A stretch of 20,735 nucleotides of DNA, taken from the NCBI GenBank assembly GCA_963775685.1, contig CAVZJV010000013.1, positions 1-20,735 of the forward strand. The letters are read 5' to 3'. Below are positions 1 through 15,667 of this stretch, piece by piece; the stretch's first letter is position 1, and each line of letters begins with the position of its first letter. This DNA comes from Candidatus Bathyarchaeota archaeon (GTDB lineage Archaea; Thermoproteota; Bathyarchaeia; Bathyarchaeales; Bathycorpusculaceae). The position numbers and the translations under genes are program-made. The notes beneath the pieces were generated by a model that did not search any database, was not told where the DNA came from, and was given only the letters and a program-made list of their open reading frames with translations.

Positions 1-21
1 TTCTAGTATTACGGTGTTTTT

Positions 22-891
22 CTGCCAATATCTAGGAGAGAGTTTATTAAAATTGGCGCTGCAGCAGCAATTGGGGCTGGAGTCGCAAGTGCAATCGAAA
101 TTCCAATTCTGGAAAATGCAATAAATAATGATGACTCCAAAATTAAGCAGCTGCAAAGCCAGATTACTCAGAGTCAAGGCTTCCTGGCTCTAAATCCTTC
201 CGAACAAGTGACAGTTGAAGCTTTGTCTGAAGCCATTATTCCCTCTGATAGCACGGGTCCAGGTGCAAAAGAAGCCGGAGTCATCTACTTCATTGACCGC
301 ATGTTAGCAGGGAATTTTGGTAAGGGCGGTAATATGTTTTTACAAGGACCCTTTGTTACCCCTCAGTCTGGGTCAGTTACAGTTATGGGCGCAAATTATC
401 CCAATCAAACAAAGACTGCCATTACATATTCGGGCGGCACAATAACACCGGATCTACAAGCTGGAACAGCTTATCAGTATGCTTTTAATCCAAGAGAGTT
501 CTGGCGACGCGGACTAGTCGCCCTTGAAGACTACTGTACTGCGGCAAAAGGCGGAAAGTTCGAAACTCTGGATTCTGCCACGCAAACAACGGTGCTTCAA
601 GAAATGTATGACAACAGCGCTGACAACACTCCGTTGCAAACTGCTTTTCAAGGTCCAAACGCAGCAGAATTCTTCAACGAAATCTACGACATGGTTATCG
701 CAGGTTTCTGGGTAGATCCAATTTATGGCGGAAACCAAGGTATGGTGGGTTGGGAACTGATAGCTTTTAATGCCAATTATTGGGGGGACGACATAGGCTT
801 GGGCGCAATGAAGTTGATGGTTGCAAGTACACCTACACGGGTGCCTCCAAAGAGTCTTGGTCAACTTACAAAAGAAGGAGGAGGAGAATAA
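22..891 (+). CDS. Gluconate 2-dehydrogenase subunit 3 family protein (small subunit of a GMC dehydrogenase) with Tat signal peptide
   Basis: Family-type motifs IIPSDSTGPGAKEAGVIYFIDRML and GFWVDPIYGGNQGMVGW. The frame is open upstream of the tracked GTG (208) back to TAG at 4-6 and encodes SRREFIK (31-51) plus a hydrophobic stretch GAAAAIGAGVASA. Start placed at CTG 22, which follows GGTG at 13-16. Confidence 0.85.
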   Translation: MPISRREFIKIGAAAAIGAGVASAIEIPILENAINNDDSKIKQLQSQITQSQGFLALNPSEQVTVEALSEAIIPSDSTGPGAKEAGVIYFIDRMLAGNFGKGGNMFLQGPFVTPQSGSVTVMGANYPNQTKTAITYSGGTITPDLQAGTAYQYAFNPREFWRRGLVALEDYCTAAKGGKFETLDSATQTTVLQEMYDNSADNTPLQTAFQGPNAAEFFNEIYDMVIAGFWVDPIYGGNQGMVGWELIAFNANYWGDDIGLGAMKLMVASTPTRVPPKSLGQLTKEGGGE

Positions 892-2718
892 ATGTCAAGT
901 CCAATTTACCATCCCCAAACCGATGTGGTAGTCTGCGGATTAGGCCACACTGGAGGTCCGATAGCTGCAGAACTAACCGCGGCCGGGTACAACGTTGTGG
1001 GAATAGAGAAGGGTCCATTCTGGGACTATAGAACTGACTGGCGGCAAGACCAAAAAGACGACGAATGGGCAATTACCGTGGAGAGAAAGTTTGATCACCC
1101 ACTCTACATCTCCACTTTCACTCTACGCAACAATATAAACCAATTCGCTTTGCCTATAAGACGATACACAAAACAAAGGCAATACCACGCGTTAGGTCAT
1201 GGAGTGGGTGGTGCTGGAACTCACTATGCTGGTGCCTTAGGAAGGTATTCCCCTTGGTCTTACTCGCCAGTAACCATGACCAAGGCAAAGTATGGCGACG
1301 CAGGATACAATACAATATTAAGCAACGTAAAAGGTGGCACGCCTGACATTGAAGATTGGCCAGTTACCTACGAAGAAATGGTGCCCTACTATGATGCTTG
1401 GGAAAAAGCCCTTGGCGTATCAGGAAACATGCAGACAGGTCAAGACCCTTTCATACCTAACGCAAGATTCCCAATGCCCCCTCATCCAACCACGCCACAT
1501 GCTACTATTTACAAAAATGCTGTCGAAAGCTTAGGATACACACCATTTAATTCAGTAAGCGGTTTAATAAGCGGTGGATACGTCAACCAGTATGGTATTG
1601 GTCGGAACGCCTGTGTTTACTGTGGTTGGTGCGGTGGTCGTTGCAACTACCCATGCGAAGTAGGTGCCAAAAGTAGTTCTCACGTGACTACTGTTCCAGC
1701 GGCTATGGCAACAGGCAAGTTTGACATGCGCCTTGATTCCTATATATTCCGCATAGATACCGATAGCACGGGAAAAGCAACTGGTGTAAGATACTACGAT
1801 GCTATGGGCAACGTACATACCCAGCCAGCCAAGGTGGTTTTCAACGGTATTTGGGGCTTCAACATTATACGACTAATGCGTTTATCAGGAATTGGCACTC
1901 CATATAACCCTGTAACTCACACGGGCTCGTTGGGAAGAGGATTAGCAAATGGCTACACTCCCTCAACTTCGAGTGCAAGCATAGAGCTAAACGTAGGTGC
2001 CAATGCATACGTCAGCGGAAACGCGTCAGGCGGCGGATACAGCATAATGGACTTAAACGAAGTTAACCCAGCATTTAGCCACGCAGATGACTTAACTTTT
2101 ATGGGCGGAGTTAATTTGGGATTTGGAAACTACATAGGAGGTGGGCCATCCACATTCTCGGCTCATTTGCCTGGTAGAACCAGCTTTGGAAGTACATGGA
2201 AAGCAGGTCTGAAAGACGAAAAAATACCCTCAAAAATCAGAGCAACACTTTCAGGAACTGGACCAAATTTACCACTTCTTGAAAACTACGTTGATTTAGA
2301 CCCGCATTACACAGATATCTATGGGGACCCAGGTGCCAGAGTTACCTTAGACTGGGATGCCAACACTTACCGCGTCTCAAACTACCTAGTAAACAAGACA
2401 ACTCTTATCACTGACATTCTTAAAAAGATGGGCGACCCATCAACCCTCAAGGTAAACCCCGTTGATGAACTTTCGCAACATGTGGATTGGTGGGGGCATC
2501 ATCAACGTGGAGGAGCAAGAACAGGAACAAACCCAGCAACATCGGTTTTTAACAAATGGATGCAATGCTGGACGAGTGAAAACTTGTTTGCTGCAAGCGA
2601 AATCTGCGATACCTTCGGAGATAACTTGACTGCGGGGACTCATGTTGCTGGAGCCATGGCTTATCTAGCGGCTGACGGCATAAAGAAGTACCTGCAAAAT
2701 CCAGGCCCACTGGTGTAG
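892..2718 (+). CDS. GMC oxidoreductase, gluconate 2-dehydrogenase flavoprotein (alpha)-like subunit with Fe-S Cys cluster
   Basis: N-terminal dinucleotide-binding VVVCGLGHTGG...VVGIEKG. GVGGAGTHY is the flavin attachment loop with His. Also DWPVTYEEMVPYYD, CVYCGWCGGRCNYPC, YVDLDPHYTDIYGDP and C-terminal HHQRGGARTG. Strong SD (GGAGGAGGAG) and abuts the small-subunit stop. Confidence 0.9.
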   Translation: MSSPIYHPQTDVVVCGLGHTGGPIAAELTAAGYNVVGIEKGPFWDYRTDWRQDQKDDEWAITVERKFDHPLYISTFTLRNNINQFALPIRRYTKQRQYHALGHGVGGAGTHYAGALGRYSPWSYSPVTMTKAKYGDAGYNTILSNVKGGTPDIEDWPVTYEEMVPYYDAWEKALGVSGNMQTGQDPFIPNARFPMPPHPTTPHATIYKNAVESLGYTPFNSVSGLISGGYVNQYGIGRNACVYCGWCGGRCNYPCEVGAKSSSHVTTVPAAMATGKFDMRLDSYIFRIDTDSTGKATGVRYYDAMGNVHTQPAKVVFNGIWGFNIIRLMRLSGIGTPYNPVTHTGSLGRGLANGYTPSTSSASIELNVGANAYVSGNASGGGYSIMDLNEVNPAFSHADDLTFMGGVNLGFGNYIGGGPSTFSAHLPGRTSFGSTWKAGLKDEKIPSKIRATLSGTGPNLPLLENYVDLDPHYTDIYGDPGARVTLDWDANTYRVSNYLVNKTTLITDILKKMGDPSTLKVNPVDELSQHVDWWGHHQRGGARTGTNPATSVFNKWMQCWTSENLFAASEICDTFGDNLTAGTHVAGAMAYLAADGIKKYLQNPGPLV

Positions 2719-2753
2719 TCAAGTTCAAAAACTCCTTATCTTTCTTTGTATGT

Positions 2754-3326
2754 GTGTTAAGCATGAGTAATAGAAATCAAGGCTTCTTAGACCACCTTAG
2801 CAGTGTCATAACGATTATTCCGCAAAAATATGTTGATGCATTACTGGTTCTTCACAGTAAGCTTGACGACAAAGAAACCAAGTGGGTTGTAAGCGGCGAC
2901 TTGGCAGAGTGCCTAAGACTGGTTAAAGTTGACCCTGACTGCATAGAAATTGTCACGTCCCAGAGGGGGGCAGAGCAAATCTTTGAAGCTGTACAAGAAT
3001 TTGTACTTCAGAAAATCAGTATCCAAACACGGCGGCTTCCAAGAGACGCTGTAGTTGGAGAAGAAAAGTTACCCGTTTACGCCAGAAGCCACTATTTTGA
3101 ATTCAAAATAAAGGATGTAACTGTTAAAGTTCAAGGTGACTTACAATTCAAAGTTGGCGAATGGGATTGGGGTGAGGTTTTTGATTTTGACCCCGAATAC
3201 GTTTATGTCGCTGGAAAAAAAACCGCTGTGACTCCGTTTCCCATTCAATATGAACTCTACCAAATGTTAGGTTGGGCGGACAGGGCAGAAAAAATAGCGG
3301 CAATCCTTAAGCCTTGCGTAAAATAG
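2754..3326 (+). CDS. Hypothetical protein, probable nucleotidyltransferase-fold with degenerate motif
   Basis: 190-aa ORF. WVVSGDLAECLRLVKVDPDCIEIVT resembles the W-x-x-x-G-S...P-x-D-I-D-I pattern of minimal nucleotidyltransferases. The start may be the ATG at 2763. Confidence 0.55.
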   Translation: MLSMSNRNQGFLDHLSSVITIIPQKYVDALLVLHSKLDDKETKWVVSGDLAECLRLVKVDPDCIEIVTSQRGAEQIFEAVQEFVLQKISIQTRRLPRDAVVGEEKLPVYARSHYFEFKIKDVTVKVQGDLQFKVGEWDWGEVFDFDPEYVYVAGKKTAVTPFPIQYELYQMLGWADRAEKIAAILKPCVK

Positions 3327-4229
3327 TTAGATGAAAAAGATTTTGTCCAAAATTAACCCTAACAGCAATAATGCAAGATATGGCATTGAAGCTATGAATG
3401 CTTTGAACCCGCTGGTTTCTGAGGCTGAAAATAGTAAGCCGCGGTTTTGGAAAAGAAATCCACCTCCAACCGTGACTGCAAATCCCAAGTAAACTGCGCC
3501 TGTTAACCCGAGCAGCGGAAATAGAAACGAGAATGCAACTGTTAAGGCATTTAAAACAAAAACGACGATTGCAGCTCTGCTTATTCCAACTTTAACTGGC
3601 AGCATAGGAATTCCTGCTGATTTGTATTCTTTCATTTTTTTAATCGCTAAACCCCAAAGATGCCCAGGGGTCCAAAGAAAATCCAGCGCTCCAATTATTA
3701 ACACCGTTAAACTCAGCGTGCCAGCGGCTGCTGCCCAACCTGCAAACCCCGCGAAACAGCCTGCAAAACCACCGATCACCACGTTCCATGGGCTTTTGCG
3801 TTTGAGCCAAACAGTGTAGACAGGCAAGTAAAAGACAAGTCCTAACGCGAGCATTACAAAAGTTAAGAGGTTAAAGAAGACGTAAGAGACTGCAAAGCTA
3901 ACTGCGATTAAGGCTGTTCCAAAGGTTAGGGCTTTGGTTGTTGTAATATACCCTGCAGGGATTGCTCTTTTTGATGTGCGTGTCATTATTTTGTCTACGT
4001 CATGGTCGTAGACGCTGTTTAGGACGCCGCAGCCGCCTGCTGCCAAGTAACCTACTATGGCGAAAACTGTAAGGTTTAACCAGTTAACGGTTGGATACGC
4101 AGCTAGCAGAAAGCATGTTACTCCAACAAGCAAGTTTAAGAGAGTTACCTTGGGCTTTGTTAACTCAAGGTATTTGGCTATTTTTTGTTTCATGAGTTTA
4201 ATAGTTCCTCTATTGAGGGTTAAATTCAC
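3327..4229 (-). CDS. ctaB: Protoheme IX farnesyltransferase (heme O synthase)
   Basis: Motifs LTKP, LNSVYDHDVDKIMTRTSKRAIPAG, YTVWLKRKSPWNVVIGG and WTPGHLWGLA...EYKSAGIPMLP, with multiple TM helices. Alternative start is the ATG at 4193. Confidence 0.95.
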   Translation of the reverse strand: MNLTLNRGTIKLMKQKIAKYLELTKPKVTLLNLLVGVTCFLLAAYPTVNWLNLTVFAIVGYLAAGGCGVLNSVYDHDVDKIMTRTSKRAIPAGYITTTKALTFGTALIAVSFAVSYVFFNLLTFVMLALGLVFYLPVYTVWLKRKSPWNVVIGGFAGCFAGFAGWAAAAGTLSLTVLIIGALDFLWTPGHLWGLAIKKMKEYKSAGIPMLPVKVGISRAAIVVFVLNALTVAFSFLFPLLGLTGAVYLGFAVTVGGGFLFQNRGLLFSASETSGFKAFIASMPYLALLLLGLILDKIFFI

Positions 4230-4747
4230 ATTCCAGTTCCGTTGCCTGAAACAGTTTTGATGATGACTGAGCCGTACATTCCGGCTTCAGCGTTTCCTGG
4301 AATTGGGCAAGTGTAGAAGAATGCCGAGCCTGCGCGGTTTGGTGTGAAAATTACTGTTCCTTGTTGACCCGGTTGAAGGGGATTTGTAGTTGAGCCGATT
4401 TCAGCGTTAAATAGTGTTGTTGCACCTGTTCGAGGGGCGGTGGTTATGGCGAAAGCGTGCGGAATCTTGCCGGCGTTAACGACCGTTATATTCACAACAT
4501 CGGAGGTTTTGAATCTAATTGTGGGGCCAGGCGAAGATAGTGTATCTGGCGTGTAACCAAAGCCGTATTTGCCTTCTGATATTTCGCCCTCGTATAGCAA
4601 AATGTTCACTGTCGGGGTCTTGCCTGAAACATCTGGACTTACCGTTAACGGCGGCTGCATGTTGAAGACAAACATTGACATCGCTGCAAAGTACAAAACT
4701 GCTGCAAGAACAACGACTGCGACAAGTGATAGGGTTGATTTACTCGT
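4226..4747 (-). CDS. Membrane-anchored cupredoxin (sulfocyanin/rusticyanin-like), second copy, with His-to-Asn change in the Cu site
   Basis: PGPTIRFKTSDVVNITVVNAGKIPHAF and YTCPIPGNAEAGMYG. The frame extends 17 codons upstream of the tracked TTG (4696) through SKSTLSLVAVVVLAAVL to ACG at 4747. Confidence 0.8.
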   Translation of the reverse strand, partial: TSKSTLSLVAVVVLAAVLYFAAMSMFVFNMQPPLTVSPDVSGKTPTVNILLYEGEISEGKYGFGYTPDTLSSPGPTIRFKTSDVVNITVVNAGKIPHAFAITTAPRTGATTLFNAEIGSTTNPLQPGQQGTVIFTPNRAGSAFFYTCPIPGNAEAGMYGSVIIKTVSGNGTGM

Positions 4748-4752
4748 TGGTG

Positions 4753-5022
4753 TTACATCCCCATTGCAATGGTCATGGCTGAGGAAACTCCGAGAAAAAC
4801 TACGCCTACAATGGCGGCTAAAGGTAAACTGGCAAGTCGGATTCCTTCGTAACGTAGGTGCTGATAGTAGAGAGCTATGGCTATGGCTTTAGCAGAGGCG
4901 ACCAAACTTATCACTAGCACAATCAAAGCTGCTGTTCCAGGCAAAGACCGAATCACAACTTCCATGACGGTTGCTATTACAAGTCCCAGCCAGATTCCAA
5001 CATACATTTTTATTCCAGGCAT
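4753..5022 (-). CDS. coxD: Cytochrome c oxidase subunit IV (prokaryotic CtaF/COX4_pro type)
   Basis: 89 aa, three hydrophobic segments, motifs YVGIWLGLVIATVMEV and KAIAIALYYQHLRYE. Lies directly after subunit III. Confidence 0.85.
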   Translation of the reverse strand: MPGIKMYVGIWLGLVIATVMEVVIRSLPGTAALIVLVISLVASAKAIAIALYYQHLRYEGIRLASLPLAAIVGVVFLGVSSAMTIAMGM

Positions 5023-5032
5023 ATTTTTTCAC

Positions 5033-5806
5033 CTAAATTAGATAGAAGAGCGGAAAGAGAAGCATCCAAACTATGTCCACAAAGTGCCAGTACAAGCCGA
5101 TGTTCTCGACGGCAACATGCTTTGTGCTGGTGAAATCTCCTCTAGAGGTTCTAAACATAAGATACCCCACCGCCACTAAACCCACCGCAACGTGCATGCC
5201 GTGAAGCCCAGTTAACACATAGTAACTTGAAGCTGGCAAACCGCTGTTTATTGTGAAGCCGTTGCGGATAAGCTCGGGCCATTCAAACCCAAATTTAATA
5301 ACTAAAAAAGTAACTCCCAATGCGAATGTTCCAATTAAACCAATTTTTAATCCCTTTAAGTTTCCAGACTTAACAAAATAGAGCGCCAAAACGATTGCTA
5401 AGCTGCTGGTGAGTAGGGTAATGGTGTTGCTCATTCCCAGGAGCACGTTGTGGGTTTGCGTGGCAACTGGCCATGAACTGCTGTTTACGCGGACATATAC
5501 GTAAGCAACGATTAGGGAGCCGAAAATAAGGATTTCAGATGTAAGAAAAACCCATAGTCCAAGTTTTTCTTTACTGACTGATTCAAGCGGAAACTTTTCT
5601 TCCTCGGACTCTTTACCTTCAACGAACTTTTCTTCAGCTCCATCTTTGAAAAGTTTATACAACCCCGCGACAACGATAACTAATCCTGCCACGAAAAGGG
5701 GAATAAAGATTGCAAGCCCAAGCAGCATTAAAGCAACGCCTGCTGCAATTATTATCGGAGTATAGGTTGGTGGGGTTTCTTCGGATTGTTTTTCTTGGTC
5801 GGTCAT
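5033..5806 (-). CDS. coxC: Heme-copper oxidase subunit III
   Basis: LGLWVFLTSEILIFGSL, NTITLLTSS, YYVLTGLHGMHVAVG and LYWHFVDIVW. ATGA overlap with the coxA stop at 5803-5806. Confidence 0.95.
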   Translation of the reverse strand: MTDQEKQSEETPPTYTPIIIAAGVALMLLGLAIFIPLFVAGLVIVVAGLYKLFKDGAEEKFVEGKESEEEKFPLESVSKEKLGLWVFLTSEILIFGSLIVAYVYVRVNSSSWPVATQTHNVLLGMSNTITLLTSSLAIVLALYFVKSGNLKGLKIGLIGTFALGVTFLVIKFGFEWPELIRNGFTINSGLPASSYYVLTGLHGMHVAVGLVAVGYLMFRTSRGDFTSTKHVAVENIGLYWHFVDIVWMLLFPLFYLI

Positions 5807-7419
5807 GATGCCTGCTCCTTTTCGGTTGACTTTGATGTTTCATTTTTGTCCAATGTTTCATTAGCTATGTTTTCTTTTTTTGTGGATTTTGCTGGTTTGG
5901 CAGTGGCTTCTTGTGCGTTGTAGTTTTGTGTCCATTCCATCTCAGTGGATTCCCAGGGATTGGGACCTGAGGGCTCATTTTTTCTGTAGCTAATAATGAG
6001 GTTAAGGATAGTGAGTAGAATGGCTGGTCCAAACACGAAGGCGCCGATTGTTGCATCCAAATTCAAAGATGCCCACCCAGAAACTACTGAGTATGTGGAT
6101 ATTCGTCTGGGCATATCTAAAAGCAAGAAGTATGGCAGGTACAGGATGTTGAATCCGATAAATGAGATGGCGCAGGTTATTTTGCCGAAGGTTTCGTTGT
6201 ATTTGCGTTTAGTTATTTTTGGCCACCAGTAGTAGAGGCCTGCTATGAGTCCAAAGAGTGTGGTTCCCGCCATGACGTAGTGGAAGTGACCTACCACCCA
6301 ATAGGTGCCTCGGAAAGCAAAGTCCAAAACTGGAAACGCCTGCAAAACCCCTGTGACACCGCCTAAAGTGACGGTGAACATTGCGGCTAAACAAAACAGC
6401 ATGGGCGTTGTTAGTTTTATGCGGCCTTTGTAGAGTGTTAACACTAACCCTATGACTAACCCTTCAAACGGTATGGAAATGGCCATGGTGGTTATCGAGA
6501 ATGTTTGGAGTATGTCATAGTTTACGCCTGTGGTGAACATGTGGTGCATCCAAACGCCCACGCTAAGAAAAGTCACCGCGGCAAACTCTATTATGAAAAT
6601 TTTTCTTGCAAAGAGCTGTTTTTTAGCAAAAGTCATGAAAACCTCTGCAATTATGCCTATTGCAGGAAACACTACGATGTAGACTTCGGGGTGCCCAAAA
6701 AACCAGAAAAGCTCATCCCACAATATGCTGCCGCCAGCCGTGGAGCTAAAGAAGACGGTTCCGAGAATTCTATCTGATGTTAGAAGGGTAACTCCTGCCG
6801 CTAATGGGGGAAAAGCGAAGAGCGCCAGAGCCATAGTGAACAGAACTGACCAGGTGAAGATGGGTAGTCGGGTCCATGTTACGCCTTTGGCTCGTTTTAA
6901 TACAATAGTTGTGATAAAGTTGATTGAAGCCATAGTAATGGAGATGGCTAAGAATGCTAGTCCCAAAATAGCAAGTGTTGCTCCCACTTGAGGAGTGAAC
7001 TCTATTGTGTTTAAGGGCGCATAGAGCGTCCAGCCTGTGTTAGCAGTCCCTCCAGGCATAAAGACCGAGCTGACCAATATGATTCCACTGAAAAGATACA
7101 TCCAGTAGCTTGTAGCATTTAGGCGTGGAAACGCCAAGTCCTTTGCGCCTATCTGAAGCGGCACAATATAGTTTGCTATTCCAATACCCAAAGCTGAAAG
7201 AACCCAGAGAATCATTAAGAGCCCATGGAGTGTGACGACTTGGTCGTAGATGAAGGGTTCAAGAAACGTTTCGTTTGGGGTGGCAAGCTGCGTTCTTACA
7301 AGTTCACCTAGTGAACCCGCCACAATAAGGAAAAAAACCGACGTTACAATGTAGAGTATGCCTATTCTTTTGTGGTTGGTTATTGTTAGCCATTCTTTTA
7401 GGGAGAATCCACTATACAA
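5803..7419 (-). CDS. coxA: Heme-copper oxygen reductase subunit I, A1-type
   Basis: All six His ligands are present (TLHG, GHPEVY, WMHH, GHFH). Also NHKRIG, GAKDLAFPRLN, GWTLYAPL and MPRR. Confidence 0.97.
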   Translation of the reverse strand: MYSGFSLKEWLTITNHKRIGILYIVTSVFFLIVAGSLGELVRTQLATPNETFLEPFIYDQVVTLHGLLMILWVLSALGIGIANYIVPLQIGAKDLAFPRLNATSYWMYLFSGIILVSSVFMPGGTANTGWTLYAPLNTIEFTPQVGATLAILGLAFLAISITMASINFITTIVLKRAKGVTWTRLPIFTWSVLFTMALALFAFPPLAAGVTLLTSDRILGTVFFSSTAGGSILWDELFWFFGHPEVYIVVFPAIGIIAEVFMTFAKKQLFARKIFIIEFAAVTFLSVGVWMHHMFTTGVNYDILQTFSITTMAISIPFEGLVIGLVLTLYKGRIKLTTPMLFCLAAMFTVTLGGVTGVLQAFPVLDFAFRGTYWVVGHFHYVMAGTTLFGLIAGLYYWWPKITKRKYNETFGKITCAISFIGFNILYLPYFLLLDMPRRISTYSVVSGWASLNLDATIGAFVFGPAILLTILNLIISYRKNEPSGPNPWESTEMEWTQNYNAQEATAKPAKSTKKENIANETLDKNETSKSTEKEQAS

Positions 7420-7423
7420 TTTT

Positions 7424-8092
7424 TTAGCCTCCTGAGGTTGGGTTTTGAACTGTCTGGTTGTTTAGCCATTGGTTAAAAACGGTTGGATCCATAACTGTAA
7501 GAGTCGCAGTCATGTACGTATGTCCGATGCCACAGAGTTCATAACAGCGTATGGTGTAATTGAGCTGGCTGTTTCCGTTCAAGAGTGGGGTAGTTATTCC
7601 CATAATATTATATCTGCCTGGTATGGCATCAACTTTTTCCCTGAAATCCATAAGCCCAAAATTATGCATCACATCGTCGCTTGTGACGTTAAAAATAATG
7701 CTTTTGCCTGAGGGAACATAACATTCTGCTACGGAGTAAGCTCCGGTAGGGTATGAGAAATTGAAATACCATTGTTTTGCCACGACGTCTATAACTAAGC
7801 TTTGAGAAACCGGTGGAGGAAATCGCTCATTAGGTGTTAGCCTGTAAGATGCTATAGTTAACCCTGATAAGATAATGATGGAGATTGCTGCGAAAACAAC
7901 GGCTTCTCGGGCTCTTGTTTTTGAGACGCCAAATTGGGTAATAAATTTAGGCTGCCCTTTTTTCTCGCGGTATTTTATGGCAAAATAGACCATTGTACCC
8001 AAAACTACGGCGACCGCCACTACCGCTATATATGCAGCTAAATTGAACAGATTATTCCAATCTGCCGTGGAAGGAGGCATAGGCTGTGGCAT
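7424..8092 (-). CDS. coxB: Cytochrome c oxidase subunit II with CuA site
   Basis: Two TM helices, QWYFNFSYP, SDDVMHNF and a complete CuA motif CYELCGIGHTYM. No C-terminal CxxCH cytochrome c domain. Confidence 0.95.
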   Translation of the reverse strand: MPQPMPPSTADWNNLFNLAAYIAVVAVAVVLGTMVYFAIKYREKKGQPKFITQFGVSKTRAREAVVFAAISIIILSGLTIASYRLTPNERFPPPVSQSLVIDVVAKQWYFNFSYPTGAYSVAECYVPSGKSIIFNVTSDDVMHNFGLMDFREKVDAIPGRYNIMGITTPLLNGNSQLNYTIRCYELCGIGHTYMTATLTVMDPTVFNQWLNNQTVQNPTSGG

Positions 8093-8221
8093 GACGTCAT
8101 CCTGCTTTTTTTATTTAATGAAACAAAAGAAAAGGGGATTTTAAAAAATTAGAGGCTTATGTTCTGTGTGTCATCATTGGGTTTGTTCGAGGTAACTGTT
8201 TGTGTTGGTTTCGTGTGTTGC

Positions 8222-8695
8222 TTATGTCGTTATATTAACGGTGCCCCACATTCCAAGGGCAACGTGACCTGGCACGGGACAAATGTAGTAGAAGGTTCCA
8301 GCTTGATTTGGCGTAAACGTTATCGATCCAGATGCTCCTGGTGCTAAATAGGTTGTTGAGGCAATTTTGGCGCCAAAGAGTACTTGTGAACCAGTTGCTT
8401 TTTCGCTGGTTATTTCCCATGCATGAGGCATTGTTCCTGAGTTTGTTAGAGTTATTTTGTATGCTTGGCCAACCTTAAGATCTAAAGTTGGTCCAGGTGA
8501 GGCTATGTTGCTTGAGCTGGTTCCGAAACCGTATGTTGCGCTGTTGACTTCTCCCGCGTATAGTGTTAGTTGTGTAGCGTTGGATGGAGCTGATGGATTC
8601 ATCATTAATGCAACAACAACTCCAACTACAACGATTATTATCACTATAATGACTATCCCTACGTACAATCCTGTTCTGCTTTTACCTTTTGACAT
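8222..8695 (-). CDS. Membrane-anchored type-1 blue copper protein (sulfocyanin/rusticyanin-like cupredoxin)
   Basis: N-terminal TM anchor, PGPTLDL, NSGTMPHAW and YICPVPGHVALGMWG give the intact His/Cys/His/Met ligand set. First gene of the oxidase cluster. Confidence 0.9.
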   Translation of the reverse strand: MSKGKSRTGLYVGIVIIVIIIVVVGVVVALMMNPSAPSNATQLTLYAGEVNSATYGFGTSSSNIASPGPTLDLKVGQAYKITLTNSGTMPHAWEITSEKATGSQVLFGAKIASTTYLAPGASGSITFTPNQAGTFYYICPVPGHVALGMWGTVNITT

Positions 8696-8851
8696 TTATT
8701 TTCGCCTTAAAAAACCGTTATTTTATACTTTTAAGACTAGGAGAAGTTTCGTTTAAACGTTTGTGTCCTTAAGCGTACAACCACAAACAAGGTTGGTTGA
8801 TTTTGCAACAAAAATTTAAAAGAAAGTTAGGCTAAATTACTATTAGGTGTT
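8696..8851. promoter_or_regulatory. Divergent promoter region of the oxidase operon and the DUF420 gene
   Basis: AT-rich gap between divergent genes with TATA-like TTTAAA at 8752-8757 and 8815-8820, and palindrome CGTTTAAACG at 8750-8759. Confidence 0.5.
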
Positions 8852-9322
8852 TTGTTGTTTTCTGATTTTCTAATGCGACTGATTGCATTGCATGCTGGCA
8901 CTCCGGTAGAGCTCTCCCAGGCAACCTTAACGTTGATGTTTGTTGTTTTAGGTATTCTTTCGATGGGAATGGGTTTTGGCTTCTTGGTCAAAAGCAAAGA
9001 GAGCCTTTTGCAGCACCGATGGAGTATGACAGTGGCTATTGTTTTGGCGCTTTTAGCAATCTTTTTTGTTATGGTGCCTTCATTCATCAGATTTTACATA
9101 GACCCCGACGTAGAGTTCTTTTCAACGCTTTCCGCAATGACAATTGTTCACGGAGTCATCGGTATACCCGCAATCGTGATGGGTGTAATTTATGCGTTCG
9201 GCGATTTGCCCCAGAGAATTAAGCAGTGGATGCGTTGGGCAGCCGTAATTTGGGCAGCTAGTCTTGTATTGGGGGCTCTCTTGTTTTTAGAAATGTTGGG
9301 TTTGCTGTCTATGTCTATGTGA
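8852..9322 (+). CDS. DUF420 (CtaM/YozB-like) membrane protein, putative oxidase assembly factor
   Basis: Four TM segments, HRWSM and IVHGVIG His pattern typical of DUF420, adjacent to the cox operon. Start uncertain (8852 or ATG 8873). Confidence 0.65.
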   Translation: MLFSDFLMRLIALHAGTPVELSQATLTLMFVVLGILSMGMGFGFLVKSKESLLQHRWSMTVAIVLALLAIFFVMVPSFIRFYIDPDVEFFSTLSAMTIVHGVIGIPAIVMGVIYAFGDLPQRIKQWMRWAAVIWAASLVLGALLFLEMLGLLSMSM

Positions 9323-9337: not shown

Positions 9338-10894
9338 CTATTGTTTGTGGAACTTGGGTATCTCCTTTGAAATCAATAATTCATCTATCCGCAACATCAT
9401 TGTTGAAACCTCATATGCTCGCCTGATAGCTGAACGCTTAACCCTGAACGGTTCTCGGCAAGGCAATTCCAAACAACCCTTCTCACCAACCCCAAAATTG
9501 TGAAAACTGTCAGCATGATGTCCCCTTAATTCAATAATAATGTCTGTAGGGTTTAACCCGTAGTTCTCAGCGAGGCATCTTGGAACATCCATAAGAGCCG
9601 AACCATAGGCTTCAATTGCTATTTGTTCTCGGCAAGCGAATTCTTTGCTGTAACTTTTCAGTACCTCAGTAATGTGGGTTTCTGCTGCTCCCCCTGCAGG
9701 TATGACCTTGTCATCTCGGCTCATCAGGTCTAAAACATTCATGCTGTTTTTGATTGTGGTCTCCAGCTCATCGATGGCTTGTTCGGTGCTTCCTCTAAGC
9801 ATGAAGGTTGCCCCTTTGCACCCCTCTATTGTGACCATTTTTTCAAGCTCTACACTGCTGGAAGAGAGATTTTCTGCCAAGCCGATGTCTTCCTCTGTCA
9901 GATCGCTCAAGTTTCCCACAATTTTGGCCCCAGTCGCCCTCGAAACCGCAAAAGTATCCTTCTTATCAACATTTTCCAGAGCGAAAATACCTAAAGAAAA
10001 CAATTTCTCTTTTTGAAAATCATCCAAAGGCTGTTCACAAAGTAGCACATTGACCTTTTGCTGAACCAACATCTCTACGGGTTGAGTTTTTAGCCTGTAT
10101 TCAGTTTCTTTGAATTCACGTATTTGCTGAGGCGTTTTAATATTTAAATGAATGTGTTCTGATCCTTGCCCTAGCATTTTGATTTCTAAACGATTTATTC
10201 CCAACTTACCGCTTGTGATTGCTACTCGCAAGTTTCTGATTTTATTTGGCATATTCGGATGGGCTTTCTCTTTCTTTATTACCACTCCTTTGATTAGACT
10301 TGAATCTTGAAGATTACCGCCCTTTTTCTTAAGAAACCTGATGGTTTCCCTTTCAAACCTCCCCTCAGAAATCGAGGAAGAATATGCTAGTCTAATCATA
10401 GATCGAACTTGCAGCGTAAGAAGGTTTCTTTTACAGTCAACTATATCCAGAATGTCGGTGCTTTGAAGTCTAGCGGTTGCTTGTCCTTCGAGGATTTCCA
10501 GCGCCTTTTCCGTTGCGAGGTGATAACCGTGGATGATGGTGTTAGCGTGAATCCCCATTGTTAATAGTTCGTCTGCCTTCTTCAGAAGTGCCGACAAAAA
10601 AATCACAAACCCAGTTACCCCATCGCCCGCTTCCTCCCGTTGCAGTTTCGCCGCTTCGGAGATAATAGTGACAGGCGGATACTGAATTGCCAACTCCTCC
10701 AAAATAGTGATTGCCTCCTTGGTCACTTTAACGACTTGTTCGGGTCCACGGTTATATGTCACCAGCTTGTATGCTCCCTTGGGACCTAGTGTACTTCGAA
10801 CTTTGTCAGCGGCGAATATGGCTATGCGCAAGTTTTCCCGCCAAACATCTTTGCCGGTTATGCGCTTGATTTTTTTAGAAATTATTTTTTCCAT
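9338..10894 (-). CDS. Divergent group II chaperonin (thermosome-like) subunit
   Basis: STLGPKG, EEAGDGVT, GIHANTIIHGY, SSLIKGVVIKKEKAHPNMP, RATGAKIV, LRGST, LAENYGL and EPFRVK...LRIDE. Start moved to ATG 10894 (MEKIISKK) because the first 34 tracked codons show no chaperonin similarity. Confidence 0.9.
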   Translation of the reverse strand: MEKIISKKIKRITGKDVWRENLRIAIFAADKVRSTLGPKGAYKLVTYNRGPEQVVKVTKEAITILEELAIQYPPVTIISEAAKLQREEAGDGVTGFVIFLSALLKKADELLTMGIHANTIIHGYHLATEKALEILEGQATARLQSTDILDIVDCKRNLLTLQVRSMIRLAYSSSISEGRFERETIRFLKKKGGNLQDSSLIKGVVIKKEKAHPNMPNKIRNLRVAITSGKLGINRLEIKMLGQGSEHIHLNIKTPQQIREFKETEYRLKTQPVEMLVQQKVNVLLCEQPLDDFQKEKLFSLGIFALENVDKKDTFAVSRATGAKIVGNLSDLTEEDIGLAENLSSSSVELEKMVTIEGCKGATFMLRGSTEQAIDELETTIKNSMNVLDLMSRDDKVIPAGGAAETHITEVLKSYSKEFACREQIAIEAYGSALMDVPRCLAENYGLNPTDIIIELRGHHADSFHNFGVGEKGCLELPCREPFRVKRSAIRRAYEVSTMMLRIDELLISKEIPKFHKQ

Positions 10895-11119
10895 AATTAT
10901 CAATCTTAACTTTGTTGGAACGCACGTAGGTACACGAGCCTGCGCATACTTGCTTACTTCTTTGATGCACTTAAGATTAAGTGACTGTAATAACACTCCT
11001 ACAAGATATGCTGTGATCCCTTGGAAATTAGCTTTTTTCCTCTTGAATTCTTATGGGTGCATAGGTTTCAGCAAGCTTTACATTGTGGGCTATTCTTAAT
11101 TTAGGTAAGGTGAAACCGA

Positions 11120-11347
11120 ATGGTAGTTCCTTTCTATATGCTGCTTAGAACTAGAGTTGGGCAATCTAAAAATGTTGTTCATGCAACTCTCAAGATTGAA
11201 GGCGTAAAAGTATCCCATTCCGTCATGGGCAATTATGACGTTATACTCTATGGCGAAGGAAAAGACATCGAAGACGTACGACGCATTCGCGACGCTGTAT
11301 TTGAAATTGATGGTATAACTATATCGGAAACTGTAGTTCACGCTTGA
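11120..11347 (+). CDS. Stand-alone Lrp/AsnC ligand-binding (RAM) domain protein
   Basis: 75 aa, pattern IEGVKVSHSVMGNYDVIL...IDGITISET, no HTH. SD AGGTGA at 11108-11113. Confidence 0.85.
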   Translation: MVVPFYMLLRTRVGQSKNVVHATLKIEGVKVSHSVMGNYDVILYGEGKDIEDVRRIRDAVFEIDGITISETVVHA

Positions 11348-11508
11348 TTTTTTTATCCAATTTTTTTCAGATCATAAACTATCTATTTTAACATAACCTT
11401 TAAAAGCTGATTATAAAGGGTAAAAATTGGTAATCGTAATCTCTCCAGGAAATTTCGTTTAAAACTAATATTCGCATCTAACTTAATTTATGCACGGGGA
11501 TTATTGAG

Positions 11509-12186
11509 TTGAAGAGCTTCAAGGGGGTCTTAGTAATTGGAGAAAGAAGTATTTTTGGTGAATTATCCCAGATTATCTCCATTGCTGCCCAGGTCAACCT
11601 CATTTTGAAAGCCATGTTCAAGAACTGCTGTAACAGTCAAGCGTTAACAGAGAACATGCATGCCGTCCGAGCTCTCGAGAGGAAGTCGGATGAAATCGCT
11701 TTCAGACTCAACGAGGATATTACGTCTGGAGCAATCAGCCCCAACCTAATCGACGACCTCATCGAAAGTGCCCACTTAGCTGATAACATAGTGGATCTTA
11801 TCTTTTATTTGAGCCGAGAGCTCAGCCGTATGGCTAAAGTTAACATAACAGATCCCTCGGCGGCACAACAGGAGGTTGAGTGGGCTGAAATTTACTTACA
11901 AATGCTTGCCCTCGTTGACCAATCACTTCCCAAACTGCAATCAATGCTATCCAATAGCAACGTTCCAAATATTATACAGTTACGCAAAGAAATCGAAGCC
12001 ATAGAAGAACGAGGCGACGATGTCAAGGATGCCGGGTTCGATAAACTCTACTCAATGGCTTCTGGAATGCATTTTCTCCATTTTTACCATTACAGTGAAA
12101 TGCTGCATAAATCCGATGATATCTTAGACACTTGCGAAGATTTCTCTGATATAATCGTGTCGATAGTCACATCTATTCTCAAGTGA
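11509..12186 (+). CDS. DUF47 / PhoU-like phosphate transport regulator
   Basis: Repeated LERKSDEI and IEERGDDV motifs, DDILDTCED. Overlaps (GTGA) the downstream PiT gene. Confidence 0.85.
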   Translation: MKSFKGVLVIGERSIFGELSQIISIAAQVNLILKAMFKNCCNSQALTENMHAVRALERKSDEIAFRLNEDITSGAISPNLIDDLIESAHLADNIVDLIFYLSRELSRMAKVNITDPSAAQQEVEWAEIYLQMLALVDQSLPKLQSMLSNSNVPNIIQLRKEIEAIEERGDDVKDAGFDKLYSMASGMHFLHFYHYSEMLHKSDDILDTCEDFSDIIVSIVTSILK

Positions 12187-13101
12187 GTCTAAATATGATG
12201 TTGTTGTCTGTTGCTCTTCTAATTTTGGTGTTTGTAGCGGTAATGTTGGTAGCAGGCAACAACTTGTCAGCTTGTGTGGGTCCTTCCATAGGCTCAAGAA
12301 TAGTTACAAAACGCTTCGGCGTACTTGTGGGTGCAACAGGCTTTTCTGTTGGATTGCTGGCTCAAGGTTCAGCTATGTTGCAGTCGGTTGGTACCTTACT
12401 TCCATATGCTTCGCCTGAGTTAAGGGCGGAAGCTTTGCTGGTGGCAATTACAGTCTTTGTTATTGCCTACAGGATTCGGGTACCCATGTCGCTGAACATG
12501 TCGCTGGTGGGACTTCTTGCAAGCTTGTCAATTGCTGGGAATTCCCGCTCGACTGGTTTGTTTGTAGTTGAAGTGGTTTTAACCTGGATTGCTGTTCCGC
12601 TAATAGCGCTTGCTGTAGCATTTTTTCTTATTCGCTTCTAATAGGGAGTGGCCAACAAACTTTTGGCATCGCCTTCAAACTTACAAGATTCTGATTGTAG
12701 TAACCTCATTCACAACAGCCTATGTAACCGGAGCCAACACACTGGGAATGATAGTTGCAACAGAAGGATTTGATTTAGCATCAGTTTTAGTCGCCATAGC
12801 TGCAATTTTCGTCGGATCTTTTTTCCTCAGCGAAGGCGCCATAAGAAGAGTTTCAGAAGAATTCTTTCTGATGCGTTATGCAAATGCGACTGTGACACTA
12901 ATAACTTCAACAATTCTAGTGGAAGCAGCCACAATTTTCAACATTCCCCTATCCATAACCCAAACAACTTCAATAGGCGTCCTCGGAGCAGGGTTATCTT
13001 ACCGAACACGATTTGTTTCAGCAAAACCGTTCTTAAAAATTGTAGCCGGCTGGGTAATTGCTCCCTTGTTGAGTTTTGCCATCGGTTTACTTATCGGTTA
13101 A
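12183..13101 (+). pseudogene. Inorganic phosphate transporter (PiT family), split by one frameshift near 12619-12640
   Basis: The first half has AGNNLSACVGPSIGS and VPMSL. The second frame is open from 12619 with TGANTLG, IPLSITQT and IVAGWVIAP. The two tracked ORFs join into one protein of about 305 aa. Could be a sequencing indel. Confidence 0.8.
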
Positions 13102-13238
13102 TCGTCGAGTGTTTCGCTCATGGGTTTGCCGCAGCACCAAGGTGCCTTCTCCACATTACGTTTGGTATCGCCTGTGCAGGACACTTCAAATTCGTTTCTC
13201 GTTTTGCGACCGCATACAGTACACTCAAACAATGGCAA
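13098..13238 (-). CDS. 46-aa desulforedoxin-like Cys4 metal-binding protein (not in ORF track)
   Basis: Manual translation from TTG 13238: MPLFECTVCGRKTRNEFEVSCTGDTKRNVEKAPWCCGKPMSETLDD*. Has CxxCG...CCGKPM, GAGG SD at 13246-13249 and a TTTATAAA box near 13270-13277. Confidence 0.8.
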   Translation of the reverse strand: MPLFECTVCGRKTRNEFEVSCTGDTKRNVEKAPWCCGKPMSETLDD

Positions 13239-13646
13239 TACAAAGCCTCAACTCGTGTAACTGAAAGGTTTTATAAAAAATTTCTGCTTATGATAAGAGG
13301 ATTGTTTCTTCTTGTGAATTCGCAGAATTGTTCTCAATTAATAATATAGAATATTTTTCTTACAGACATATTGTCGCTTGGCCTTGGATTCTTTAGAGGT
13401 ATAGTCATCGGGTTCATATTCTCATAAATCCATTCTCAATTGGTTAAACCTTGGAGAACAAAAGGTTATTAGAAGTGCACTAGCGTCAAGAGAAAATTGG
13501 GTTTAAAGGGAACGAAAGAGTAACTTTGATGGGAATCTTCACTCGTTTCATATTTTCAGCACTTTATCAGGTATTTAAAAATGAAATAGATTTCTAATGA
13601 CTTTTCTTCAGACAAAAATTCGTGCCATTTCTCTGAAAATTTGCAA

Positions 13647-14611
13647 ATGGGCTTTAGAATCTAAAGCGGTTTGATTTCAAACTTGTTAGGCGCCGGGTTC
13701 CTTTTTTTCGGGCACAAGCTAACTTACAATTGTAATCTACGCTGTAAGATGTGTCCCTTCTGGAAAAGAAACAATCCAGACTTGAGTTTAGCGCAGGAGA
13801 AAGCGATTCTAAAGCAGATTTATAATTCGGGAGCATGCAGAGTCGCTTTTAAAGGCTGAATACCACTGCTTAGGAATGATTTAGTATCGATTCTTGATTT
13901 TTCCCGGTCCTTGCCTTTGCACACAAGCCTCATAACTAATGGTACCTTGCTTGAATCCCAAATAGGTGAGATAGCTCCCTACATTAACGGGGTTGTCTAT
14001 GTTTCATTGGATGGTTTGGAGAAAACTCACGATACCATCAGAGGAGTCAGTGGAAGTTTTAGAAAGTCCGTAAGAGGCATAAGTGCGGCGAGGAAGAAAT
14101 TTCCCCTAACCATTAACACTACTATCATGGCTGAGAACACAGATGAGATCGAGAGCAATAGTAAAGTTAGTCCAAGAGTTGGGCACAAAAATATCCGTAG
14201 CTGTAGCTCACGAATGATACAATGCAAACGTATCTTCACCTGCCGATGACAAAATACCGAAAATAGCAAATAGACTAATGGAAATGAAGCGGGAAGGCTA
14301 CCATATCTTCAATTCTATGGGATACTTCAAAGGCATTGGCTAAAGAGAAAAAGTGGCAATGCAAACCCTGGACAATGATAAACTTAGATCCTCAAGGAAG
14401 CGTAGTTTTGCCCTGCTATGTCCACAGCGACTACGCAAGCATCGTCTCTATTTTAAATGGTGACCTTAAGAGGCGGCTATATCTAATTTTGACTGGAAAA
14501 AAATAGAAAACTGCCAAAAATGCAGCCTACATTGTTACGTGGGGCCTTCTTTGGTGCTTTCAAAAGATTATTAGTGCGTATATGTATTGGGCATTTCGAG
14601 TTAATGTTTAA
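13647..14611 (+). pseudogene. Radical SAM/SPASM protein pseudogene (resembles PTO1314 family)
   Basis: GHKLTYNCNLRCKMCPFW (CxxxCxxC), LITNGTLL, VSLDG..HDTIRG, CKPW.MINLDPQGSVVLPCY and CQKCSLHCY are spread over several frames. In-frame stops at 13662, 13857 and 14215, with frameshifts near 14157 and 14330 and further lesions downstream. Confidence 0.88.
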
Positions 14612-14805
14612 ATTAAGTGGATAAGGCTTAATCATTAGAAGTTATTGTCTGACTTTTAGATATTTTGTGGATCGAGAAGTGATTTTTATGGTTTATTTGA
14701 ATAGAAAATACGGTAGCTATGAGTGCGGACAGGGTCGTGGTAAGGGTTTAAACGTTGATCAGTCGAATTAGGCAAAGGAATAGAAGTGATGTTGTCGAAT
14801 TGATC

Positions 14806-15003
14806 TCAAAGAGGAAGGTATTTCCAGAGTTTGACGCTTGGTAGTCCAGGTTGCCAATGCCAAGTCCTGAGATCACCTAAAAAAAATAATAAGTTTAGCG
14901 ATGCAACAATTGACCAAGAAGTAACAAATACCATCAGGCTTGCCAAAAAAACCGATTTGCCAAGTTATCGCCATAACGGCAGTAAATCAAGTGAAAAAGC
15001 CAT
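14806..15003 (-). pseudogene. Possible small membrane protein gene with one internal stop
   Basis: MAFSLDLLPLWR*LGKSVFLASLMVFVTSWSIVASLNLLFFLGDLRTWHWQPGLPSVKLWKYLPL*. TAA at 14965-14967, GTGA just upstream of the ATG. An intact 42-aa version could start at ATG 14934. Confidence 0.35.
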
Positions 15004-15064
15004 AGTCACTACGTTTTTATTTGTTGAACCCCATAAAATTTGCTGAGAGTTTGAGAAAGGAGAG

Positions 15065-15136
15065 AAAGGTTAACTTAAACGCGAGCGAATTCAGGAAGAG
15101 AGAGGGAACACTTCGCCTGCATTTAAGCTAACCTTT
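15065..15136. repeat. Imperfect 25-bp inverted repeat / long hairpin
   Basis: AAAGGTTAACTTAAACGCGAGCGAA (15065-15089) pairs with TTCGCCTGCATTTAAGCTAACCTTT (15112-15136), 21 of 25 Watson-Crick, with a 22-nt purine-rich loop. Confidence 0.85.
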
Positions 15137-15469
15137 TCTGTATTATATACTGAGAGTCTTTGAACCATAAATAATGATGTGATTGTGCCTACACAGCAAC
15201 AAGTTAGATTTGATGGTGCCAAATTGGTTAGTTTTTTGGATTTACGCGGGGGCAGGTCTTGTGGAGTGCAAAATTGTGTCTTGGTCGTATTTTTCCTGAT
15301 TACTGACTTGCTTTTCCATAACCTTTCCGTTACCAGAAAAACCTTTTCCTGAAATAAGAAGGTCTAAAAAACGATAAAAAACTATAAAATAATCTTGAAT
15401 TATTTATCCAATACCTCACAACCTCATCGATGCTGCATTTAACCGGATTTAGTTATCTTTGTGAAGGTG

Positions 15470-15488
15470 GAAAAGAAATGTTTATATC
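15470..15488 (+). promoter_or_regulatory. Putative rRNA promoter (BRE + TATA)
   Basis: Purine-rich GAAAAGAAA followed by TTTATAT (15481-15487), about 25-30 nt before the structured leader begins. Confidence 0.6.
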
Positions 15489-15667
15489 AGTTGACTAGGC
15501 TTCTGTTAGAATTCAGCTATAATTGCTAACCCCGCAATTTTCACATGGCGGCGGCTCAACCCCTACCGAAACGGCGATTACGCCTTGCAGGAATGACGGA
15601 GTTGGCCTCCAGTTGTGGGGACAAAAATAGGAAATGTAGACCTGACTAATTGCTCAGTTAGGTCTGA

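Follow-up and report, generated by a model that had tools for sequence, protein, structure and literature searches.

In the SoxM supercomplex of Sulfolobales, and in the chain proposed for ammonia-oxidizing archaea (AOA), a Rieske-cytochrome b complex reduces a blue copper protein, which feeds the CuA centre of the oxidase. In the methylamine dehydrogenase-amicyanin and rusticyanin chains, electrons from a periplasmic dehydrogenase enter a blue copper protein ahead of an aa3-type oxidase. In the bacterial FAD-dependent glucose dehydrogenase (FAD-GDH), a Cys-rich stretch binds a 3Fe-4S cluster and the small subunit serves as 'hitch-hiker' for export by the twin-arginine translocation (Tat) pathway. 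Here we describe a locus of a Candidatus Bathyarchaeota archaeon in which a dehydrogenase of this last kind, two blue copper proteins and an A-type oxidase share one block of genes and may form a single respiratory chain. The window, by which we mean the whole stretch of DNA that was analysed, is 20,735 bases long and is the entire contig CAVZJV010000013.1 (C13) of the 14-contig, 3.06 Mb bin GCA_963775685.1.

Cytochrome oxidases are already on record for the class, in papers used here through portions of their text. The soil genus Houtuousia (Houtuarculales, GTDB 40CM-2-53-6) exclusively encodes cytochrome c oxidases and is described as lacking the Wood-Ljungdahl pathway and pyruvate:ferredoxin oxidoreductase (Hou et al. 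2023, PMC10321748), and the peat 'Ca. Paludivitaceae' (Houtuarculales / 40CM-2-53-6) have coxABCD and lack cdhABCE (PMC11619403). Both groups encode an aa3-type coxABCD and have been read as facultative or microaerobic (PMC10321748, PMC11619403). Bathy-6 (GTDB UBA233), to which the genus studied here belongs only by a guess, is reported to lack both a known route of quinone synthesis and terminal electron-transfer machinery (PMC11697101). The GTDB names are confirmed from PMC9534799, likewise a partial text. An earlier reading of the window from its letters alone (hereafter the initial annotation) took the class to be generally described as anaerobic sediment organisms; (micro)aerobic members with cytochrome oxidases were published in 2023 and 2024.

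The genes that the initial annotation named are all present at the positions it gave, as judged by Pfam and NCBIfam on the 20 open reading frames (ORFs) scanned, with RNA identified by Rfam and motifs read directly. Those of the proposed chain are as follows.

14..891, plus strand: small subunit (GMCs), Gluconate_2-dh3 family, with a Tat signal (Pfam PF13618, E 1e-27, ORF 208-891).
892..2718, plus strand: GMC-family FAD catalytic subunit (GMCL), 608 aa (GMC_oxred_N and GMC_oxred_C, weak).
2754..3326, plus strand: TM1012-like nucleotidyltransferase-fold protein (NTase), 190 aa, cytoplasmic (profile against PDB).
3327..4229, minus strand: CtaB, heme O synthase (NCBIfam TIGR01473, 251.6 bits, above the 210.3 cut-off; Pfam UbiA).
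4226..4747, minus strand: cupredoxin 1, membrane-anchored at its N terminus (Pfam cupredoxin families, ORF 4226-4696).
4753..5022, minus strand: CoxD, subunit IV (Pfam COX4_pro, E 5e-10).
5033..5806, minus strand: CoxC, subunit III (Pfam COX3, E 3.5e-27).
5803..7419, minus strand: CoxA, A-family haem-copper oxidase subunit I (Pfam COX1, E 1.6e-130).
7424..8092, minus strand: CoxB, subunit II with an intact CuA site (Pfam COX2; NCBIfam CoxB, E 6e-41).
8222..8695, minus strand: cupredoxin 2, with an N-terminal membrane anchor (Pfam Copper-bind, E 2.6e-10).
8852..9322, plus strand: DUF420-like four-helix membrane protein (Pfam DUF420, E 3e-4, below cut-off).

The first two genes encode the two subunits of an extracytoplasmic flavoprotein enzyme of the FAD-glucose/gluconate dehydrogenase type, without a cytochrome c subunit. 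The small subunit (~290 aa, single-copy in the bin) carries the twin-arginine motif SRREFIKIG (31-57), which is invariant in all 11 aligned orthologs. GMCL has no signal peptide and an N-terminal FAD motif (VVVCGLGHTGG), and it matches GMC_oxred_N (E 1e-6, 28.9 bits against a cut-off of 23) and, just below cut-off, GMC_oxred_C (E 3e-4). Its best relative of solved structure is the alpha subunit of Burkholderia cepacia FAD-GDH (6A2U/8HDD, E 3e-9). The Cys cluster of GMCL, CVYCGWCGGRCNYPC (C241/C244/C247/C251/C255, pattern CxxCxxCxxxCxxxC), aligns with the Cys-rich stretch of that subunit (6A2U_B), and four of the five residues (C241, C247, C251, C255) do not vary among 34 sequences. The Tat small subunit and the FAD subunit are therefore borne out by PF13618, the twin-arginine motif and the FAD motif, while the Fe-S half of the 'FAD/Fe-S' label becomes a putative cluster, predicted from the alignment of the Cys motif to the 3Fe-4S region of the Burkholderia enzyme.

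The third gene of bacterial dehydrogenase operons encodes the cytochrome c subunit; here the NTase gene stands in that place, and it adjoins GMCL in all 23 GMCL-holding loci. Its profile matches 2EWR/2FCL (E 2e-20) of the TM1012 family of putative nucleotidyltransferases, and its AlphaFold2 model (pLDDT 89) gives a Foldseek TMt of 0.84 to TM1012, followed by ANT(2'')-Ia and LnuA. These last two, both small-molecule adenylyltransferases, are its nearest characterised folds. The initial annotation had allowed that a cytochrome c subunit might lie just upstream of position 1. No cytochrome-like gene was found upstream of the small subunit in the 13 of 13 relatives inspected, where ATP synthase genes occur instead, with TatA/TatC-like ORFs in loci L057, L022 and L025. 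A multihaem cytochrome c subunit is thus absent from the window and from the operon surroundings of these 13 relatives, and PF00034 was not found in five close carriers. CxxCH occurs three times in the six frames of the window, each time in a stretch between stops (16, 58 or 69 aa) and never in a real gene, in agreement with the initial annotation.

The minus-strand set (cupredoxin 2, coxB, coxA, coxC, coxD, cupredoxin 1, ctaB) encodes a complete A-family oxidase with CuA, a heme O synthase and two anchored type-1 copper proteins, and the full coxBACD operon with ctaB holds up by Pfam, NCBIfam and motif reading. The CuA motif of CoxB, CYELCGIGHTYM (CxExCxxxHxxM), is complete, with HNFG upstream. 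CoxA matches NCBIfam CtaD_CoxA at E 1.7e-166, below cut-off, and has the helix-VI motif GHPEVY (FFGHPEVYIVVF). GHPEV in helix VI is a marker of A1 oxygen reductases; together with the COX1 match, a CuA-bearing subunit II and subunits III and IV, it places the enzyme in that group. The canonical Lys of the K-channel is replaced (window 6470-6500; IPFEGLV against IPTGVKIF in Bacillus subtilis QoxB, 6KOC). Among the rows caught by the search pattern, which left other archaeal rows uncaught, IPF[ED] occurs in 23 of 23 of the window's clade, 21 of 26 of Nitrososphaerales type, three of three from Halobacteria and one of two from Acidilobaceae. This recurrence across archaeal CoxA rows makes it a trait of a wider clade and not a defect of the window's gene. 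The acidic residue two positions before the lost Lys is conserved (IPFE/IPFD) in the rows where the motif was read, the Aeropyrum row included.

Cupredoxin 2 has a complete His/Cys/His/Met ligand set in the alignment (HAWE...CPVPGHVALGM). The DUF420-like gene is divergent from the cox operon, and its product has two histidines (H55, H100) that are invariant in the alignment. It is present where the initial annotation placed a DUF420 gene; with a Pfam match below cut-off, 'DUF420-like' is the name it warrants. The idea that this protein might be a compact haem A synthase gained no support, as its profile matched no CtaA of solved structure.

A quick maximum-likelihood tree of CoxA (66 rows; 15 loci left out as broken or short) places the window's protein in a clade of 23 rows (SH-aLRT 100). 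The oxidases of '40CM' Bathyarchaeia (L065-L069) are distinct from it and fall with those of Nitrososphaerales (SH-aLRT 96), while the tree does not resolve the deeper archaeal branches. Records holding CoxA relatives at 47-54% identity bear the titles Nitrososphaerales or Thaumarchaeota.

The bin (96.9% complete, 2.4% contaminated) belongs to a genus of 120 genomes inside a class sample of 401, and the records of its relatives are soil and bog metagenome-assembled genomes (MAGs). The genus census covers 120 species-level genomes, which are kin, so that all counts from it are descriptive only. CoxA was found in 33 of them and GMCL in 30: both in 27, CoxA only in six, GMCL only in three and neither in 84. 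Leaving out this bin, 26 genomes encode both, and 23 of these have CoxA and GMCL within 7 kb of each other on a single contig; the co-occurrence on which the initial annotation had staked its reading is accordingly seen in relatives. A wider search for CoxA returned 80 loci, 34 of which form a close clade at 57-87% identity; 23 of the 34 have GMCL within 10 kb and three of the other 11 are too short to tell. Within the class sample, CoxA-like proteins occur in 52 of 401 genomes, including 8 of 39 from the window's genus and 41 of 74 from family f33, an oxidase-rich family that is only 'same class' kin of the genus.

GMCL was not found in three Nitrososphaerales and two '40CM' genomes, and a sample of 251 genomes from the class to which G486 belongs gave no match either. 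Protein-database matches to GMCL at 50-60% identity are named Thaumarchaeota or Nitrososphaerales, and the mismatch with the genome search may reflect loose source labels. Four records titled Nanoarchaeia, Limnocylindrales, Sulfotelmatobacter and Dormiibacterota (L010, L015, L027, L068) hold the archaeal block or CoxA and are probably mis-binned or mislabelled contigs.

Cytochrome b was found in 19 of the 120 genomes (13 among the 33 CoxA carriers), FixO, the marker of cbb3 oxidases, in 16 (four CoxA carriers, one of which is this bin with the markers on allelic contigs), the PF13442 cytochrome c domain in 17 (five CoxA carriers) and a bd oxidase in five or six. At least 45 genomes have an A-type and/or cbb3-type haem-copper oxidase. 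The oxidase carriers mostly lack a recognisable cytochrome c, as the initial annotation would have it: PF13442 was not found in 28 of the 33 CoxA carriers, nor PF00034 in five of five close carriers. Among the 18 other genomes with the window's type of GMCL (75-89% identical), cytochrome b was not found in 17, and carriers of that GMC type have no bd oxidase at the family cut-off. Conversely, all six CoxA carriers without GMC have cytochrome b, in a Rieske-cytochrome b-cupredoxin operon, and none of the 33 CoxA carriers lacks both inputs. The strongest argument for the dehydrogenase as electron donor is therefore one of exclusion: no quinol:cupredoxin or cytochrome route was found in carriers of the window's GMC type, whereas GMC-less CoxA carriers always have one.

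In three of these six GMC-less CoxA carriers (G387, G419 and G474), the alternative operon consists of a protein with Cyt-b5, Tat and Rieske parts, a cytochrome b of 503-510 aa and an anchored cupredoxin (L113:5481-9395, L112:5896-9030 and L111:4892-8801). The cytochrome b5-like domain of the Rieske protein is N-terminal to its Tat signal. Beside the operon are genes for a UbiE-type methyltransferase and a UbiA-type prenyltransferase, and in L113 also a polyprenyl synthase.

Two variants have lost the oxidase and kept the dehydrogenase. G458 has the order GMCs-GMCL-NTase-cupredoxin, followed by a 58-aa remnant of ctaB and then the thermosome gene (Ths) of the block; the remnant indicates that cox was deleted. 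G406 has the order Ths-DUF420-cupredoxin 2-NTase-GMCL-GMCs-TatA, from which cox, cupredoxin 1 and ctaB are cleanly absent. Both retain an intact cupredoxin beside the GMC operon. Two types of GMCL, 75-89% and ~49-63% identical to the window's, occupy one block site, and they do not strictly match CoxA subclades (L019; loci L004, L011, L014, L019 and L029 against L001-L009), which suggests module replacement.

Taken as a whole, these data lean, if only slightly, towards a path from dehydrogenase to cupredoxin to CuA to O2 that works without a cytochrome c subunit, and this is the explanation we favour. GMCL would be exported piggy-back on the Tat small subunit, and on the outer side of the membrane the dehydrogenase would oxidise a sugar, a polyol or a sugar acid. 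Electrons would pass from its putative Fe-S cluster to an anchored cupredoxin, which would reduce CuA, and the oxidase would reduce O2 and build a proton gradient. In the window's subclade the dehydrogenase would thus stand where sister genomes have the Rieske-cytochrome b-cupredoxin complex, and such a chain would need neither quinol oxidation nor a c-type cytochrome. The comparative data support this path and do not prove it. Of the chain drawn in the initial annotation, the comparative side stands: every CoxA genome has the GMC pair and/or the Rieske-cytochrome b-cupredoxin operon, and the cupredoxin is kept in cox-less variants. The sugar or sugar-acid substrate and the direct transfer from dehydrogenase to cupredoxin are inferred.

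In this genus the A-type oxidase is accompanied by one of two interchangeable electron-input modules. If the path is real, the chain would be among the shortest aerobic chains known. It would link extracellular oxidation of sugars or polyols directly to O2 at soil oxic-anoxic interfaces, and its dehydrogenase would be a naturally occurring member of the FAD-GDH family, whose enzymes serve in biosensors, that does without a cytochrome. CdhC was found in 105 of the 120 genomes, nearly all block carriers included; as carriers retain this O2-sensitive acetyl-CoA synthase, the role of the chain could be microaerobic energy gain, O2 scavenging or both.

A number of points weigh against the proposed path. 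A search of full texts listed no precedent for a cupredoxin as acceptor of this dehydrogenase family, and the sugar-type substrate is itself putative. No RNA sequencing run holding the window stretch is listed, and the single DNA run listed has a 0.06 word share. CtaB is present, but CtaA (PF02628), which the initial annotation proposed to search for in the genome, was unmatched in the bin; it was likewise unmatched in the control Sulfolobus acidocaldarius. The co-occurrence of GMC and cox may reflect a few events of inheritance or deletion and not functional coupling. The strongest counter-points are that the genomes are not independent, that G406 is oxidase-less and that seven genomes have both inputs. 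Searches of G406 (95% complete) for CoxA, FixO and bd oxidase gave no match, so that its dehydrogenase may have another acceptor. The seven genomes that encode GMCL and cytochrome b together mean that the two inputs are not strictly alternative.

These last two points fit a rival explanation, in which GMC and cox are no more than neighbours in one deletable block, the oxidase and its cupredoxins being fed by another donor, for instance a different extracytoplasmic dehydrogenase or an unrecognised quinol oxidoreductase, and GMC feeding another acceptor. This would also account for the 11 of 34 oxidase-clade loci that lack GMC within 10 kb, three of which are too short to tell, and the many membrane-associated PQQ-domain (pyrroloquinoline quinone) proteins described in the available part of the Bathy-6 paper (PMC11697101) add to it. 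Against it, no alternative donor was found in carriers of the window's GMC type (cytochrome b absent in 17 of 18, no bd at the family cut-off, mostly no cytochrome c), the Rieske-cytochrome b-cupredoxin operon appears in six of six GMC-less CoxA carriers, and a cupredoxin remains beside GMC after cox has been deleted. We regard it as unlikely, while it is the most serious of the alternatives.

The block runs from window position 1 to ~10902, about 10.9 kb, and so extends past position 9322 to include a thermosome paralog. The remaining features of the window are as follows.

9338..10894, minus strand: block-specific thermosome (group II chaperonin) paralog (Pfam Cpn60_TCP1, E 8e-104).
10903..18769, strand not assigned: flank with PhoU_div, PHO4, 16S and flavodoxin (blastn against the bin).
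15805..17300, plus strand: archaeal 16S rRNA gene (Rfam RF01959, 1476.5 bits).

The thermosome paralog probably starts at the ATG at 10892-10894 and shares only 31-33% identity with the three thermosome genes of C14, the largest contig of the bin (2.47 Mb). Its orthologs occur in 30 of the 120 genus genomes and track the block, with 24 of the 27 CoxA+GMCL genomes and all three GMCL-only genomes having it, cox-less variants included.

On C14 the same flanks are joined and the block is absent. The window's right flank is 96.8% (10903-13290) and 94.9% (14895-18769) identical to C14:2428025-2434294; window 13291-14894 (1.6 kb, with a radical-SAM fragment at 13911-14249) has no counterpart there. 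Left of the site on C14 are an A-type ATP synthase operon and genes for USP, a proteolipid, and 103-aa and 452-aa proteins, the same genes that lie beyond the small subunit in block-carrying relatives. Left-flank homology to L005, L002 and L064 ends at C14:2428030-31 and right-flank homology to the window begins at C14:2428025, and this abutment makes a clean empty site. A 6-bp TCTTAA stands at both ends of the block, in single copy at the empty site, and is the sole repeat; the pattern fits microhomology deletion as well as target duplication. Marks of an integrative element were not seen: the window has no tRNA, and no integrase family was matched among the 20 ORFs scanned with Pfam. A supposed 5' thermosome remnant on C14, which would have proved deletion, was discarded, as the homology begins 9 bp upstream of the real ATG.

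Small contigs elsewhere in the bin are collinear with parts of other contigs (C7 and C10 with C14 at 79-99.5% identity, C2 with C6 at 90-93%), so the bin mixes at least two close strains. These contigs, and the single 16S match in each long-contig relative, make it very probable that C13 is an allele from a co-binned close strain. Inferences from the whole bin are consequently unsafe for the window. The window and C14 copies of 16S are 99.87% identical, and amplicon surveys would be blind to a trait that is present in one such strain and absent from the other.

With a sister strain that lacks the block, and with heavily broken copies in G439, G466 and G479, a second alternative is that the block is a decaying, non-working remnant in this strain, whatever its role in relatives. 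The window's copy does show blemishes, which also count against a working chain. Cupredoxin 1 has ACG where relatives have the start codon ATG (4745-4747) and Asn (AAC; CPIPGN; 4292-4310) in place of the C-terminal His copper ligand, a His present in 19 of 19 other HAF-type copies caught by the motif scan. Of the two anchored cupredoxins of the initial annotation, both are present, but the type-1 ligand set of this one is incomplete, its second His being Asn, and these changes are substitutions and not homopolymer indels. The small subunit most likely starts at the GTG at 14-16, the start codon also of L008 and L009, and the CTG at 22 is no start; the window is 1 nt shorter than these loci in a T-run at 17-21, which breaks the frame 8 nt past the start, inside the first 24 nt of the contig. 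PHO4 (12183-13101) is two ORFs in the window and one intact 306-aa ORF on C14. All three blemishes may come from poor consensus or from decay of the block in the strain. A T-run at a contig edge is a typical place for a consensus error, cupredoxin 2 is intact, and the block has full-length, conserved genes for CoxA, CoxB, CoxC, CoxD, CtaB, GMCL, cupredoxin 2 and the thermosome paralog, for which reasons we consider decay quite improbable.

Position 9322 and the 16S gene are 6.5 kb apart, and the initial annotation took this linkage as a test of taxonomy. The gene is 99% identical to the 16S of the L008 and L005 genomes and 97% to that of L007 and L018, all four of which are MAGs titled Ca. Bathyarchaeota with one 16S match each, which assigns it to the class Bathyarchaeia. 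In all four, the 16S shares a contig (0.36, 0.37, 1.19 and 1.08 Mb) with the cox cluster, 4-17 kb apart. The linkage is thus repeated in independent assemblies, and the window's contig is not chimeric. It is therefore very improbable that assembly or binning created the link between respiratory genes and 16S, even though the window is a short separate contig, 6.3 kb of C14 is duplicated in it at 95-97% identity and L010, L015, L027 and L068 carry bacterial or Nanoarchaeia titles, since 16S genes 97-99% identical lie near the cluster in four other assemblies, the order Ths-PhoU-PHO4 beside the block recurs in L005 and L008, and the genes that flank the block on its left in relatives also stand to the left of the empty site of C14.

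The GC content of the window ranges over 37-58%, with the maximum over the rRNA gene. The small-subunit rRNA is the sole rRNA that Rfam finds in the window; the 16S gene is followed by flavodoxin and major facilitator superfamily transporter genes and not by a 23S, so that the rRNA genes appear unlinked.

The bin as a whole is not free of cytochrome c. C14 has two paralogous cbb3 loci, L081 (C14:2262001-2281000) and L082 (C14:1456001-1474000), one copy being frameshifted. Each encodes a CcmF/NrfE-like protein (640-650 aa), a DUF420-like paralog, CcoN, a fusion of FixO with two Cytochrome_CBB3 domains and a FixP_N-like protein, and each fusion has three CxxCH motifs (tri-haem). CxxCH occurs in 21 of 4,226 crude ORFs of the bin, and by Pfam only the two fusions are cytochromes. 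A search of the bin for cytochrome b left PF00033 and PF13631 unmatched, the Rieske matches are two small soluble-type proteins, one with an internal stop, and a NuoD homolog is present. The genome search laid out in the initial annotation therefore found cytochromes, CcmF-like genes and small Rieske proteins, and no cytochrome b. As C14 represents the allele without the block, these features belong to the sister strain, and a reading that credited the window's own organism with cbb3 oxidases and cytochrome c was given up because C13 is an allelic variant of C14.

A bolder form of the proposed path is that the ~11-kb block, with its own chaperonin and gained, lost and modularly remodelled among co-occurring strains, provides a minimal chain without quinone or any cytochrome c or b outside the oxidase and makes Wood-Ljungdahl Bathyarchaeia facultative microaerobes. 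We put this forward tentatively, as a possibility that falls short of an even chance. Full-text searches listed no paper that describes the block or couples this dehydrogenase family to cupredoxins, although supplementary tables, which were not covered, may list its genes; 'GMC' and 'gluconate' do not occur in the available portions of PMC11619403 and PMC10321748, and neither describes the block there. Within the literature searched, an oxidase of a distinct clade in a Wood-Ljungdahl-retaining lineage of another order appears to be new, as do the cytochrome-free dehydrogenase-cupredoxin input and the strain-level presence or absence and modular remodelling of the block.

Compared with the bacterial glucose, gluconate, fructose and sorbitol dehydrogenases of the FAD-GDH type, the operon has the same order, a Tat-exported Gluconate_2-dh3 subunit followed by a signal-less GMC subunit, and its Cys cluster aligns with the part of the GDH alpha subunit that holds the 3Fe-4S cluster. 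It differs in having five Cys in that cluster where GDH has four, in its low overall similarity (E 3e-9) and in lacking the multihaem cytochrome c that is the third subunit of those enzymes. The amicyanin and rusticyanin chains share the logic proposed here, in which the quinone pool is bypassed, but they start from another dehydrogenase family and still place c-type cytochromes before the oxidase. The SoxM and AOA chains likewise use an anchored blue copper protein in the stead of cytochrome c together with an archaeal A-type oxidase; they have a Rieske-cytochrome b complex, which the window's subclade lacks and sister genomes of the genus possess. Finally, Houtuousia and Paludivitaceae are, like the present genus, Bathyarchaeia of soil or peat with an aa3-type coxABCD, but the CoxA of '40CM' lineages forms a separate clade (L065-L069) and two '40CM' genomes are without GMCL. 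These published aerobic Bathyarchaeia gave up the Wood-Ljungdahl pathway, whereas the window's genus keeps CdhC beside its oxidase.

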